DNA from: Escherichia coli
GTDB lineage: Bacteria; Pseudomonadota; Gammaproteobacteria; Enterobacterales; Enterobacteriaceae
Length of the DNA stretch: 64,000 bases
Assembly: GCF_003018255.1 (NCBI RefSeq)
Contig: NZ_CP027441.1
Direction: 5' to 3' (one strand)
In this document: piece after piece, positions 3,001-9,000 of the stretch
How positions within the stretch are numbered: the stretch's first letter is position 1
Layout of the letters: every line of letters begins with the position of its first letter
Made by a program: the position numbers

Positions 3001-6000
3001 TGGCGAATCCAGGCCAGATCGGCATTTCTGTCACGGGCTGCCATTCGCTCACCCGACAGCGCCTTGCTGATATGGCTGCGCACCAGATTATCCAGGAGTT
3101 CCTGCGCTTCTTCCGGTGAAAAGCCACCTGGTATCTCTGTGCGCAACAGTCCTTTCCTGTACAGTAGCTGCAGCAGATCAATCTGCGACCGCACTGCAAC
3201 TATCAGTACATAACGGACAATATTCGCACTGGCGGTGGTTTCTGTATCATTCAGCAGTTCCTCCGGATCATTACCACCGGTATTGCAGAGCAACGGCAAC
3301 AGAGGTCGCATCCACACGGGAACCTGATATTGTTCGTCTGATTTCATCATATTGCGTTCTCCAGCTTGTTCGGGATCATCCACTGCTCAAGTGCACGTAC
3401 CTGTACCGGTGCACCACGACCGGCCTCACCGGCTTCAAAAATCAGCCGCCAGAGTGGTTCCTCCTGCCAGAAAAACCGGTCAAATGATGACAGTGATGGA
3501 AAACGCCCGCACCACCCCCAGAAAATCGTTTCCAGATCATGCTCCTCAACAACACCAGACCAGCGGGACAACCAGCTTCCGACCGTGGCGGGAGTATGAA
3601 ACGCAAGGTCAATCTGCGCCTGAGCAAAACATGTCTGGTATTCCAGTTCCCGTCGTTCTGCCTCACGTTCCCGCTGGCGGCTGTATTTCTGCTCTGTCAG
3701 CGTGGTTTTCTGACGACGACGCTCACCTTCACGAAAAGGAACGGACGGGAACAGACGATGCCCCGCATCGGATGGCAGGGGAAGAACACAGACTTCACCA
3801 AAACTTTCAATCAGTTTATCCACGGCAGCCAGCCACAGGAGACGGTTGCCATGAAATTCCTCCTTCGTCAGCGCAGGGGCAAAAAAGCGGAGATCGGTCA
3901 GCGAAATCCGGCGACTGCCATTCAGGCAGCGAAAGAAAGCGCTGGCATAAGGCCATGCTGAAAGTGTGCGTCCCTGACGACGACGTTGTTCGGTGACAGC
4001 CACAGCCTGCATGGCGGCCTGTTGTTCTGCGCTGAGGGGGATCAGTGCCCGTGAACGTGCGCTCATGCCTGACCTCCTTCTGCCATCAAAATATGAATGA
4101 TGTCGTTAACACTGTATCCCTGCGCATCAAGTGTCGCGGCGAGCGCCAGCGTGTGACTGATCGCGACAGGCGTGAAGATATGTTGCACCTGAACGACGGC
4201 GAAAGGCTGTCCACCACCATTCACCAGAACCAGCATCCAGAGCTGAGAGACGTCTCCCGGCGAACATAATGCCAGGTGGAAACGTTCGTGGGCAGGCGTG
4301 AAACGAACCTGGACGGGGAAAAAGCCCCCGAACTCACTGCCATACTCGCCATTCATCATCCAGTTAGCCGGTGCGTCCACTTCACGCATCACCTCGTGAG
4401 TGAGATTACGGCGCATATCGCTTCCCGCAGCACGGATATCTTCATATTCCTGTGCGTTCATGGACTGCAGGGCATTCAGGGTCAGTTCTGTTTTCATCAC
4501 GGTATCTCCCTTGCTGCCGCCCCGTCTCCGGCGGGGCGGTGTGGTTGTTCATCAGGCGGCATCAGCCAGGTTAGTGGTGTGTTCAGTGGCATCCATCTGT
4601 GGACGTGGTGTACACATCCAGCCAGGCACCCAGCGGTTGTCTTTCATATGGAACTCTGCATGTTCAGCCACATCGCCTTTCTTCATCTTCTCCGCGTCCC
4701 GTGCGGCACCGGACAGTCCTGCCTCATTCAGGGCTGCGATAATCTGCGGCTTTTTCAGGTGTCCGAAGAAGTTTGCTTTTGTCGGCTGCCACCAGTCGCG
4801 CATGTGAAAACCGATGGCGCTCTCCAGCGTGTCCAGCGGGCTGCGTGACGTGTGACCACACTCGCGGGTCTGAACGCCGTGGATGCTGCACGCGGTGCAG
4901 AAACTGAGCAGGGATAACAGTACCTCCTGACTGAGTGAAAGGAACGTCGTCATGTCCCGTGACCATCCCTCCGGTAACAGGGCCGCAAGACGGGCTTTTT
5001 CTGCCATCATCGCCATGAACGCGGCACCTTCCTTCCCTGACGGCGCATCGCTGGTCAGCGAATAATGTTTACATTCCAGGCTGATTTGTGCTGGTTTACT
5101 GTACGCTCCGCTGCTAAACACATTCAGGCAGAGCGTCCATGCCAGCAGTGCCAGAGATTTGTCCGGTTGCTGCATCAGTGCTGCCTGGACTGCCAGCGTG
5201 CGTTCGGAAGACATTTTCGTCAGCAGTGGCAGACTGATTTCCTCCACGGGCGCTTTCTCCTGCACCTGTTCCGTGCGGTCAGCGTCGTCAGTCGCGTCAT
5301 CAGTTCGTTCAGACGTTCTTCTTCCGCCTCCGTCAGCACCGCTTCCGGCTCCGGCAGACAGCGGTATGTTCCGGCATCCTCACGGCACTCACCGACAGGC
5401 TCCATGCGTCCGGCGCACCATCCCCAGCCTTCGGCTTCCCGAAGGTGTTCAGCAACAGCCTGGAGTTTTTCCAGCAGGGCGGCATCGAGCGCCACGCAGT
5501 CCACATAGCCACCCTCGTCGTCGCTGAACAGGTCAGTGCGCAGTTCATCTGGCGAGAAGGCATCAGCCCCCACGAAGCGGAATTTACTGTTCCCTGCCAC
5601 CGCCACTTCACTTTCGGTCACCAGACGACGAATGGTCTGTACTTCCGGTTTACCGCCCCATCCCGACTGACAGGCGGCTTCAAACACCTGCACCTGACGC
5701 GCGGTGTCGTTCTCCAGCGCCAGCGCCTGACAGTGCTCGGTGGTGATGAGGTCTTCTGCCAGCGCATCGAGGATGACAGGCGCAAGGTCAGCCAGTTTCA
5801 GCATTCGCTGAACGTGGCGGGGTGAATAGCCCAGCAAATCACCGATTTGTGCAGGTGTTTTGCCTTCCTGCGCCATTGCGCGGAATCCGGCAATCTGTTC
5901 GGCAGGGTGCATATCCCGACGCTGACCGTTCTCGGTCATCGATGCGGCAGTCGCCAGCTCCTGCGGAATGACCTTCACGCGTACAGGCCAGTCAGCCGGA

Positions 6001-9000
6001 AGGATGCCACGCTCTGCCAGCATGTTGAGTGCTGCCAGTCGGCGACCACCTGCGGCGACACCGTAACGGTCACCAGGCAGGGTATGCACGACCAGATTCT
6101 GCAACAGGCCAACGCCCTTAATGGACTCCGCCAGTTCGCTGACGGACTCCGCAGAATACGGCACCGTGCGCACATTCAGCGGTGATTTAATCAGCGAGGC
6201 CAGCGGCACGCTCACTTCCTCCGTCTGCGCCAGCAGAGCAGTCAGGACAGTTTCCTGCGTTTTTGCAGGTTTACGGCTTGCTTTACGGGTAGATTTTGGT
6301 TCAAACTTTGTTACTGACATGACTATCCCCTTATTGTGTAGTTAATGTCTGCCGGACGCGTTCCCGTCCGGCACCTCTCTTACTTAAGAATGCCGAAATC
6401 CCTGATGACATGGTTCATCCAGTACCCGGCACCGTCCTCAAAATTCCAGGTACGCCAGACCAGGCCACTGTTATTGCGGACAACCAGGCGAAAATGCGTT
6501 CCCTGCTCATCCTCGATAAAGACGTTCCGGTACTGTGCGGCAACGGCTTCCGCCTGTTCGCGGGTAAAGGAGCCGTCCGGCAGCCCCTGAAGTATTCTGA
6601 AATATTCGCTCATCCTCATCTCTCCGGTGATGCCCCGCGCAGGGCGGTTATCACAGTCAGGCCAGTCAGAACGGGATATCGTCTGAATACCCGTAATCCT
6701 CCCCCTCCGGCGGTTGCGGCTGAGGCTGAGGCTCGGGCTGCGCGGCCTTACGTCCACGGCCTTTCGTTTTCGCGCCACTTTTTTTCGTCGCGTCAGCACT
6801 CTGTGGCTGCCCATTCTGCTGAGGCTGCGGTTGTGCCTGAGCGTTCTGCTGTGGTGCACTCCCCAGCATCTGCATGGTGCCCGTGGTCTTAACAAGAATT
6901 TCAGTGACGTAACGGGTGATACCGTTATCTTCCCAGCTACGGGTTCGGAGTTGCCCCTCGATATAGACCTGCGCGCCCTTGCGCAGATATTCACCTGCCA
7001 CTTCCGCGAGCTTGCCGAACAGCACCACGCGGTGCCATTCCGTCTGCTCCCGCATCTCCCCCGTCTGTTTGTCGCGCCAGGTTTCTGACGTGGCCACCTG
7101 CAGGTTTGCCACTGCGCCCCCGTTGGGGATGTAACGGACTTCCGGATCTTTACCCAGACGACCAACCACGATGACCTTGTTGATACCACGTGCACTCATA
7201 AGAACCTCCTGACTGAAAGATGTGAGATAAACCGGATACCGGCGACGGGACGTTCATGTGCCCCTTCAGAGGAGCGAAAGCTCCTCCTGCCGTCCACTTC
7301 ACAGGGGTTTCTCCCCGCAGTGGACCTTTCCGATGGGGGCCCGTTTACCGCCTCACGGGACAGCTGTCCGGGGGCGGACGCAAAATTTTTTGCCGGGTTC
7401 ATGGCTAAAAATTTTGTGGCCGGTGCATCTCACCCTGGACAGATGGAACGGGAGGGGGTTACGTCTGCCCCCCGGAAAGTCCACAGCGGGAAACAGGCCG
7501 CAGAGGTGGCTGCAGGAGGGAGGACTGCTGCGCCATCAGGCGCAGTTTCCTCACACACCGTCAGGTGTGCAGGGAGCGCAGGTCACGGCGCGACTGAGGC
7601 GGCGCGACCGGAACGGTCGCTGCAAGCCCGGTTTTTCACGCATCGGACCGTAGCGGCAGCCCGAAACCGCGCCAGCGGGTTCGGCGGAGACTGGCGGGTG
7701 CGCCAGCAGCTGCCTGTCGGAGTCGGGCCTGACGACCGGATGCCGCCAGGCAGCCGGGAGCCGAAGGGGCGCATGTGTAAGAAGGTTCTTTAACGACAGG
7801 TCTGTAACAGGTACTTCCTGAAACAACGCCTGTCACCAACAGGAAGGGTAACGGGCGACGCGCCAGCGTGGCCCGCTTCCCTTCCGGCAGGCGCCAGCCT
7901 GCCAGGGGTTTTCGCGCGGGCTGACAGGCGGCCTCCACCGCCTGCCCTGTATCACCTGTGCCTGCTGCCCTGAAGGATGTAGTGGCCACCGAGGAAAACC
8001 GCCTGCTGATTCGCCACAAAATCACAGATTTCATCAACAATCTGCGCGGTGGTGAGCGGTTTCTGCCCCATTTCACGACGCAGCGCATTAATCACGGCCC
8101 TGTAATTACGCAGAATTTCGCGGGTTTCCGTGCTGATATTCATTACCCGTTCTCCCCGTCCAGCGCCTGACGCATCACCCGCATAATCTCACGTTCTTCC
8201 CTGACAAATGCGTCACCGTCGCCCCCGTTCTCGCTCCCTACAGCATGGAGGCGATAAATTTCACTACCAGCCATCACCATCACTTTTTCCAGCAGCACCG
8301 CAGGAACTGTTACAAGACGGTTTACGCGCTTTTCCTCCATCAGTTCACGAACAACGTCGTGAACAATGCTGACATCAGCACCATGCTCAAAGGCATCGTC
8401 CAGCCGCTGCATGACGGTTTCCAGCTCATCGTCTGTCAGACTCCAGTCCTGGGCTATGTGACGCACATCCCCACGGGTCAGCACCACGGCAAAAACGCAT
8501 TCACTGTCCGGCACGTCTGTATCCAGCACTTCGCGGATAATTTCTTTAACAGTACAGTACATGTTCTCGTCTCCTTTACAGGGGCGGCATTGCCGCCCCG
8601 TCCGTTAATCAGTCCAGTGCCGCGTAAATCGCGTTGCATTCGGGGTGAAATTCGATGTGGCTCCACAACTGCGCATCGCGCATCCGGTAAAGGTGTGTCT
8701 GTCCCGCATCCCCGCTGTCGTGGTACAGCCACAACTGGCGGTTAATCACAAGGGAAGTCAGGATGATACCTGCGGCATCAGCACTCACAGTGCGGTCAAA
8801 CCAGTTTTCACCGTTGACCAGATGAAAACGGTCGCCATCCGGCATCATGTAACCGCCACCGTCCGGCAGGCGGATGAAATGCCAGAAGCCTCCCTGATAT
8901 TCCGGCATCATTTTTTGCGCCAGCGCGTACACATACGCCTCGGCATACAGAAAATCGTTGCCAAACAGGTAAGGCAGAAAGGAGAGACGGTCACACTCTT

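Follow-up and report, generated by a model that had tools for sequence, protein, structure and literature searches.

A 190-nt deletion probably inactivates the HerB (YfjB) gene in a lineage of pO113-like plasmids carried by Escherichia coli that produces Shiga toxin

HerB, the YfjB protein of the F plasmid, was reported in July 2026 (bioRxiv 10.64898/2026.07.07.736705; PMC13370423). In that report, HerB is described as a ParB-like clamp that binds CTP and DNA and was crystallised with CTPgammaS-Mg2+, and its role is given as reprogramming of host transcription, not partition. Domain D4 dimerises HerB and attaches it to the nucleoid, with which D4 alone was also associated. The D1D2 and D1D2D3 truncations were diffuse; D4 was required, and foci needed all domains. 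According to the report, HerB makes plasmid acquisition less costly and helps the plasmid win repeated transfer rounds. When herB was deleted, the transfer frequency was unchanged, the acquisition cost was about 10% higher, and the plasmid was outcompeted over repeated transfer cycles.

ParB2 of pED208 is encoded in the same conserved cluster, ssb-parB2-psiB-psiA, and was studied as an intact protein translocated via the type IV secretion system (PMC8406263). Deleting pED208 parB2 did not impair transfer, pilus production or SOS suppression (PMC8406263), which fits a gene that nature can lose. No role for the leading-region ParB-like gene is given in Samuel et al. 2024 (PMC11541004) or in PMC12672017, where ParB appears only in unrelated contexts. 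Also comparable are the canonical CTP-dependent DNA clamps ParB, Spo0J and Noc.

The DNA analyzed here, termed the window, is a 64,000-nt stretch of the E. coli contig NZ_CP027441.1. On sequence grounds, it carries an orthologue of F-plasmid yfjB (ParB2, recently renamed HerB), a gene whose ParB-like product is synthesized right after conjugative transfer, at the same site as in F, between ssb-yfjA and psiB-psiA. The first ORF of this gene contains ParB_N at residues 41-131 (PF02195) and HTH_ParB at residues 136-222 (PF17762) by Pfam. It matches TIGR00180 of NCBIfam at 66-68 bits (68.0 in the partition-protein test) against a cut-off of 58.45. The best solved-structure matches were Spo0J, ParB and Noc (PDB 1vz0, 4umk, 7nfu). 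This likeness to the canonical clamps lies in the N-terminal CTP-binding and HTH domains, whereas the C-terminal half (D3, D4), past residue ~240, found no match in Pfam, NCBIfam or solved structures by sequence searches. The intact allele is colinear with F YfjB, each being 652 aa, with 92.8% identity. Box II (GGRRLAA, 91-97, with R94) and Box III (MTENG, 128-132, with E130) are numbered as in F YfjB, and the HTH residues R168, R172 and K175 are present as in F. Every named CTP-binding and HTH residue is conserved, and residues 1-343 of the window gene are identical to the checked intact allele. Of the marks of a partition protein, ParB_N and HTH above the curated cut-off were found and an adjacent parA was not; the neighbors are a DUF905 gene and psiB. 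The gene had been labeled a ParB-like nuclease in the original prediction. That label is an old domain name, which reads "ParB N-terminal domain" in the Pfam copy used here; the F orthologue was reported as a CTP-binding clamp, and the available part of PMC13370423 reports no nuclease activity for it.

The ORF listing of the window contains a minus-strand ORF of 366 aa with an ATG start (5220-6320) and a second minus-strand ORF of 237 aa. The two lie in different frames, overlap by 46 nt and jointly span 1769 nt, as had been described from the sequence (two overlapping same-strand ORFs, about 590 codons). Their place between ssb and psiB was also broadly right, although the DUF905 gene lying there had gone unmentioned. 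Both ORFs are essentially identical to the two ends of the intact 652-aa protein WP_000117306.1, and neither is judged to be due to chance. The features of the locus are collected in Table 1.

Table 1 Features of the broken herB gene and its neighborhood in the window.
Feature	Position	Strand	Remark
psiB (4063-4497) and psiA (3347-4066), intact	3347-4497	-	Downstream of broken herB
3' herB remnant	4552-5301	-	Native codons 404-652 plus stop, shifted to the -1 frame as counted from the start codon
Mechanical second ORF, 237 aa	4552-5265	-	In the intact gene, its GTG "start" is an internal codon, Val416
Only substitution of the dead 3' remnant	4670	-	Codon 614, Ala to Val (A614V)
Out-of-frame tail, 23 codons	5220-5291	-	LTTLTARNRCRRKRPWRKSVCHC; closes with premature TGA stop at 5220-5222
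5' part of herB/yfjB	5292-6320	-	Native codons 1-343, identical to intact WP_000117306.1
Deletion junction	5293-5301		One copy of the 9-nt exact direct repeat kept, reading CGCGTCATC along the + strand and GATGACGCG along the gene strand
DUF905 gene (yfjA of F), intact	6380-6613	-	Immediately upstream of herB, same operon
Plasmid ssb, intact	6666-7199	-	Opens the ssb-yfjA-herB-psiB-psiA cluster
Non-coding region upstream of ssb	7205-7768		Repeated at 1111-1608

Alignment to intact homologues, which had been proposed for locating the indel, placed the lesion at 5293-5301. Relative to the intact gene of 1959 nt (652 aa), the window gene lacks 190 nt (63 codons plus 1 nt). The alignment consists of two blocks with these 190 nt missing between them, and the blocks share the 9-nt exact repeat. 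The lesion had been assigned to 5220-5265; a point indel in that interval is ruled out by the alignment to the intact allele. In intact alleles, the two copies of the repeat are 190 nt apart (gene nt 1020-1028 and 1210-1218) within an imperfect repeat of ~22 nt. The 190-nt segment would have been lost between the two copies of GATGACGCG, most likely, as the junction suggests, through slippage during replication or through some other recombination between short repeats that does not need RecA. F herB lacks this exact repeat pair and has GATGATGCG and GATGACGTG instead, which indicates that the deletion substrate is specific to the pO113/IncI-gamma-type allele.

The deletion leaves residues 1-343 and 404-652 native, in frames 0 and -1, respectively. 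Because 190 nt is 63 codons plus 1 nt, reading from the start reaches a premature stop after residues 1-343 and 23 out-of-frame residues. With the domain limits taken from PMC13370423, the 5' part covers D1 (ParB N-terminal CTP-binding, 1-136), D2 (HTH, 137-235) and 106 residues from the beginning of D3 (238-343). The last part of D3 and the whole of D4 (418-652), which is responsible for dimerization and nucleoid association, are encoded by the 3' remnant. A complete in-frame D3 (238-417) is therefore absent, since the native sequence ends at 343, residues 344-403 are deleted and the remainder is out of frame. Similarly, a D4 fused to D1-D3 is absent, as the D4 coding sequence (4552-5259) lies in the -1 frame, 3' of the stop. 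The predicted product is residues 1-343 plus 23 out-of-frame residues, lacking D3 residues 344-417 and the whole of D4, and thus, in contrast to F HerB, the dimerization core. Because the F HerB truncations without D4 were diffuse and formed no foci, the truncated protein is predicted by analogy to be non-functional as a DNA clamp. The putative D1-D2 fragment, with an intact CTP pocket and HTH, may still have some residual or altered activity. The locus is classified, from its sequence, as a disrupted member of the HerB/YfjB/ParB2 family, a pseudogene and not a functional member.

The remnant is nearly undecayed, with A614V as its one substitution, and this indicates that the deletion is recent. 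Neither the intact allele L001 nor the deletion plasmid CP027372 has A614V; equal bit scores suggest a one-base difference from the window in the remaining five carriers as well.

In six complete plasmids, one unbroken alignment covers the 1769-nt gene; all other matches are split into at least two pieces. These six carriers are independently sequenced ~174-kb plasmids of Shiga-toxin-producing E. coli (STEC) from the USA and Japan, and the window is the seventh member. The carrier assemblies came from three groups, namely CDC, an HUS collection from Japan (PacBio RS II and short reads) and a study of cattle in Okinawa. In the carrier plasmids, the gene is annotated by PGAP as "frameshifted". 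The 2101-nt region around the gene matches all six with equal scores and a printed identity of 100.0%. Published serotypes exist for four of the six hosts and are all different (OgN13:H19, O74:H20, O181:H51 and O181:H49), and three carrier hosts show secA differences at 11-28 of 2706 positions. The plasmid is typed as conjugative by MOB-suite. The deletion marks a lineage of ~174-kb pO113-like plasmids in LEE-negative STEC. Four serotypes and three secA alleles among the checked carriers indicate that the herB-null plasmid went on spreading between unrelated hosts after the gene loss. Such spread agrees with the experiments in which herB was dispensable for transfer frequency and gave only a modest establishment advantage. 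Identical deletions could in principle recur at the same short repeat, but all carriers are the same ~174-kb plasmid type.

Other natural disruptions of herB were found in plasmids outside this lineage. Four sampled records without an annotated CDS all bear lesions in the same gene that are independent of the deletion in the window. In K. pneumoniae pKP58-2 (NZ_CP041375.1), herB is frameshifted and has no CDS in the PLSDB gene table; at gene nt ~1384 it contains an insertion of 59 nt flanked by a 9-nt repeat. In pEC-16-35-4, the herB span is 40 nt longer than the intact gene and only a 617-aa ORF is kept. The gene is split into 472 + 193 aa in CRKP_20 and into 180 + 480 aa in p4710_2. No CDS was listed in 16 of the 46 RefSeq rows of a rank-spread list of 60, many being near-identical Klebsiella plasmids; this is a rough sample and not a population estimate of the frequency of disrupted alleles. 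These sequences point to herB being often lost across plasmid lineages.

With a probability of roughly nine in ten, the two overlapping frames are a pseudogene of herB (yfjB, parB2, yfhA) made by a real, inherited 190-nt deletion. The original prediction had offered three alternatives, and the evidence favors the first of them, by which a conserved leading-region gene has truly been inactivated by mutation. The second was a sequencing error, by which the real plasmid would hold an intact gene and the frameshift would come from read errors or repeat collapse. The junction does sit at a short direct repeat, but a difference of 190 nt is no homopolymer error, a repeat of 9 nt exact and ~22 nt imperfect is too short to collapse a long-read assembly, and the same junction recurs in all six of the independent, complete assemblies from three groups. 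A sequencing or assembly artifact is hardly credible on these data. The third alternative, a programmed -1 ribosomal frameshift, or else transcriptional slippage, fusing both frames into one functional protein, can be practically dismissed. The downstream native frame is indeed -1 relative to the start, and both frames are open over 160 nt (5220-5379), where a shift would yield a fusion. However, a scan of the whole gene for the slippery heptamer of such recoding found no X_XXY_YYZ in frame 0, and within the stretch open in two frames all A/T runs are shorter than 4 and all G/C runs shorter than 5. The two-frame layout is also not conserved. Across thousands of plasmids, nearly all homologues extend over the full ~1959 nt, and the gene is a single 652-aa ORF both in F and in pRM10042-1, the closest intact relative; the two-frame layout is found only in the six records. 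Any fusion would still lack about 60 D3 residues.

The fragments might also have kept or gained a function, with D1-D2-partial-D3 acting as a monomeric protein that binds CTP and DNA, and/or a D4-only protein made from GTG 5265 that acts on the nucleoid or serves the HerB of other plasmids as a dominant-negative partner. This is considered very unlikely. The N-terminal fragment still has its native ribosome-binding site and has lost none of the catalytic or HTH residues, the second ORF corresponds to residues 416-652 with Val416 almost at the D4 boundary (418), the nucleoid association of D4 alone in F would suit such a role, and the deletion plasmid has spread into several host lineages. Against these points, GTG 5265 is simply an internal valine codon, no convincing Shine-Dalgarno-like sequence was seen before it on inspection, and the minus strand of the gene showed no promoter-like site. 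The diffuse D1D2 and D1D2D3 proteins of F also argue against it, and the breaks in other plasmids lie at quite different positions, which fits loss of function better than a specific new architecture. By sequence alone, a neutral loss looks the same as a selected one. It is very unlikely that the loss was non-neutral, with removal of the D4 core selected in the pO113-like STEC lineage, either because HerB reprogramming is costly or useless in these hosts or because of a new fragment role such as interference with the HerB of incoming competing plasmids. If this were true, the many independent herB disruptions of other successful plasmids, including those in widespread K. pneumoniae IncFII/IncR plasmids, would represent recurrent adaptive loss and not drift.

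As a feature in itself, the locus carries little weight. It is already known as an ordinary pseudogene, flagged by the NCBI pipeline in six public genomes, and the gene family has been described. A modest interest lies in a natural herB null allele whose plasmid, a large virulence plasmid, occurs in no fewer than four STEC serotypes, from two continents and from both cattle and HUS patients. Together with the independent knock-outs in other major lineages, such alleles are possible test material for the importance of HerB outside the laboratory.

The leading-region order ssb(-DUF905/yfjA)-herB-psiB-psiA is the same in the window, CP027372 and F. The non-coding region upstream of ssb gave no alignment to F Frpo2 at E <= 1e-10. 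Its segment 7205-7640 folds as single-stranded DNA into a long imperfect hairpin (-124 kcal/mol, z = -8.0). From its position, repetition and folding, the region is a candidate single-strand promoter of the Frpo/ssi type that may drive early expression of the cluster, following the Frpo2 concept (PMC9849209). Within the cluster, the internal promoter and terminator scan of 4400-6700 found no promoter-like or terminator-like site on the minus strand; apart from a GC-rich hairpin at 4515-4541, which separates the stop of herB from the start of psiB, it gave nothing.

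Two overlapping same-strand ORFs in different frames were found between ssb and psiB, as the original prediction had stated, with an overlap of 46 nt and a joint extent of 4552-6320 (1769 nt). ORF1 contains a ParB_N domain (residues 41-131) and an HTH_ParB domain (136-222), and scores above the curated cut-off of TIGR00180. ORF2 had no match in family profile searches. The locus forms the leading region of a conjugative plasmid (MOBP, MPF_I by typing). A GC-rich hairpin with a 12-bp stem (CCGCCCCGTCTCCGGCGGGGCGG) lies at 4515-4541, within the 54-nt spacer from the herB stop (4552) to the psiB start (4497), and the scan gave it as a terminator-like site of the plus strand only.

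Table. The two herB reading frames and their neighbours in the window.
Feature	Position	Strand	Remark
psiA	3347-4066	minus	neighbour
psiB	4063-4497	minus	neighbour
ORF2	4552-5265	minus	237 aa
ORF1	5220-6320	minus	366 aa
DUF905 gene	6380-6613	minus	neighbour
ssb	6666-7199	minus	neighbour

The gene between ssb/yfjA and psiB was named parB2 in pED208 (PMC8406263) and yfjB in F (PMC9849209), and the name HerB comes from a July 2026 preprint (PMC13370423). Window 4400-6500 was compared with plasmids by megablast. Four records matched in a single piece, and for thousands of others the match fell into two pieces with a span larger by 190 nt. Among intact relatives, pRM10042-1 (NZ_CP028120.1) is the closest; its gene is 1959 nt long, and the 652-aa product (WP_000117306.1) is annotated as a ParB/RepB/Spo0J family partition protein. 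F YfjB (F plasmid locus L008, 3539-5497) is colinear with this product, also 652 aa and 92.8% identical; Box II GGRRLAA (91-97, R94), Box III MTENG (E130) and the HTH residues R168, R172 and K175 occupy identical positions in both.

Alignment to the intact allele located the lesion. Base by base, the window equals this allele from the left up to 5301 except for one mismatch, and from the right exactly from 5293 onward. The matching blocks therefore overlap at 5293-5301 by 9 nt, CGCGTCATC (plus strand). The intact gene has two copies of this 9-mer, at gene nt 1020-1028 and 1210-1218 with a distance of 190 nt, both embedded in an imperfect direct repeat of about 22 nt. Since the blocks overlap by a sequence present twice, the deletion removed one copy together with everything between the two. 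The junction signature suggests slipped-strand or other illegitimate recombination between the short repeats. The reading frame is shifted because 190 = 63 x 3 + 1. The window allele is translated as native residues 1-343, then 23 out-of-frame residues up to a TGA stop at 5220-5222; native residues 404-652 are now in the -1 frame, and the GTG start of ORF2 is the internal Val416 codon. The split of the gene is thus a true frameshift, produced in herB/yfjB by the loss of 190 nt between short direct repeats, and represents no new kind of element.

Sequencing error and programmed frameshifting had also been proposed. The same deletion is carried by six plasmids of the E. coli complete-genome collection, 173.6-175.4 kb in size, which align with the 1769-nt gene in one piece: CP027372 and CP027451 (CDC, human, USA), AP027257 and AP027259 (HUS patients, Japan; PacBio RS II with short reads), and AP042513 and AP042586 (cattle, Okinawa). 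A 190-nt difference common to seven assemblies from several laboratories excludes an artefact. Recoding would require a -1 shift, and 5220-5379 is open in both frames. The two-frame-open stretch contains no homopolymer run, no X_XXY_YYZ heptamer was found in frame 0 anywhere in the gene, and F as well as thousands of other plasmids have the homologue as one ORF, which rules out programmed frameshifting. The inactivating mutation, put forward as one possibility for this conserved leading-region gene, is real, and the deletion has been passed on within a known lineage of STEC plasmids. It is already annotated in public records as a pseudogene, "frameshifted" in the PGAP annotation of CP027372.

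Over window 1-25000, the window is 99.6-99.8% identical to the six carriers, in 2-4 pieces each and never in one. Position 4670 carries a substitution (A614V in the dead remnant) absent from CP027372 and the intact allele. The window is therefore a seventh member of the lineage. IS66-family transposase genes lie under some of the carriers' 25-kb matches and are absent under others; insertion-sequence differences may distinguish lineage members. The nearest intact alleles (99.7%) belong to pO113-type plasmids of LEE-negative STEC, e.g. NC_007365. The published serotypes of four of the six carriers all differ (OgN13:H19, O74:H20, O181:H51 and O181:H49), and secA differs among three carrier chromosomes at 17, 11 and 28 of 2706 positions, whereas the 8.1-kb leading regions of the window and CP027372 differ by two substitutions and one 5-nt indel only. 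This indicates that the plasmids are much closer kin than the strains that carry them, and that horizontal movement of the herB-null plasmid took place after the deletion. In the ssb-DUF905 spacer (6636-6650), the window reads CAGGGCGG and CP027372 CAGGGCGGGGCGG, a 5-nt copy-number difference (GGGCG).

According to the preprint (PMC13370423), HerB consists of a CTP-binding ParB N-terminal domain (D1, 1-136), an HTH domain (D2, 137-235), D3 (238-417) and a novel domain-swapped dimerisation core (D4, 418-652). D1D2 and D1D2D3 truncations are described there as diffusely distributed in cells; D4 is the domain that attaches the protein to the nucleoid, and focus formation requires every domain. 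The window allele codes for D1, D2 and residues 238-343 of D3. By comparison with the F truncations, dimerisation through D4 and assembly on the chromosome would be lost, which would make it a loss-of-function allele. Some activity of the retained fragments is quite improbable. Separate translation of the D4-like ORF2 finds no support, as no Shine-Dalgarno was seen in the bases before its GTG and the promoter scan gave no minus-strand promoter-like site. The approximately 665 nt of untranslated RNA past the premature stop might subject psiB and psiA to Rho-dependent polarity.

Independent disruptions of herB exist in other plasmid lineages. Of 60 matching plasmids sampled at spread ranks, 46 are RefSeq rows, and 16 of these 46 have no CDS under the match; the sample is mostly near-identical Klebsiella plasmids and gives a rough indication only. 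The gene was disrupted in all four such records opened, each at a different place: a 59-nt insertion at nt ~1384 in pKP58-2 (L004, NZ_CP041375.1), a match 40 nt longer than the intact gene with a remaining 617-aa ORF in pEC-16-35-4, and splits into 472 + 193 aa in CRKP_20 and 180 + 480 aa in p4710_2 (loci besides pKP58-2: L005, NZ_CP093229.1; L006, NZ_CP107423.1; L007, NZ_OQ281830.1). The 59-nt insertion allele occurred in 10 of the 60 rows, mostly K. pneumoniae IncFII/IncR plasmids. Loss of herB seems common among successful plasmids. The preprint reports that herB deletion left transfer frequency the same, raised acquisition cost by ~10%, and caused the plasmid to be outcompeted in multi-day conjugation competition (PMC13370423). 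The sample fits an advantageous but dispensable gene. The only added value of the finding is that plasmids which spread despite a natural loss of herB could inform the role newly proposed for HerB.

In transconjugants, YfjB appears early and transiently, expressed from Frpo2, a single-strand promoter that precedes ssb (PMC9849209). The leading region contains dispersed direct repeats in non-coding DNA, in two pairs. The first pair (1111-1608 and 7269-7768; 83-96% identical) has one copy directly upstream of ssb and the other, 1111-1608, beyond ardA. In the second (2307-2606 and 9053-9352; 95%), the copies immediately precede ardA and a second antirestriction gene (8614-9039). No alignment at E <= 1e-10 was obtained between F Frpo2 and the copy next to ssb. 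The single-stranded form of 7205-7640 has a folding energy of -124 kcal/mol versus -83 +/- 5 for shuffles (z = -8.0). The repeats are probably Frpo/ssi-type single-strand promoters. A further hypothetical-protein pseudogene of CP027372 (L003 1-173; window about 1346-1572) is marked "frameshifted" by PGAP; it overlaps one Frpo-like repeat copy and may therefore be a false annotation of non-coding sequence.
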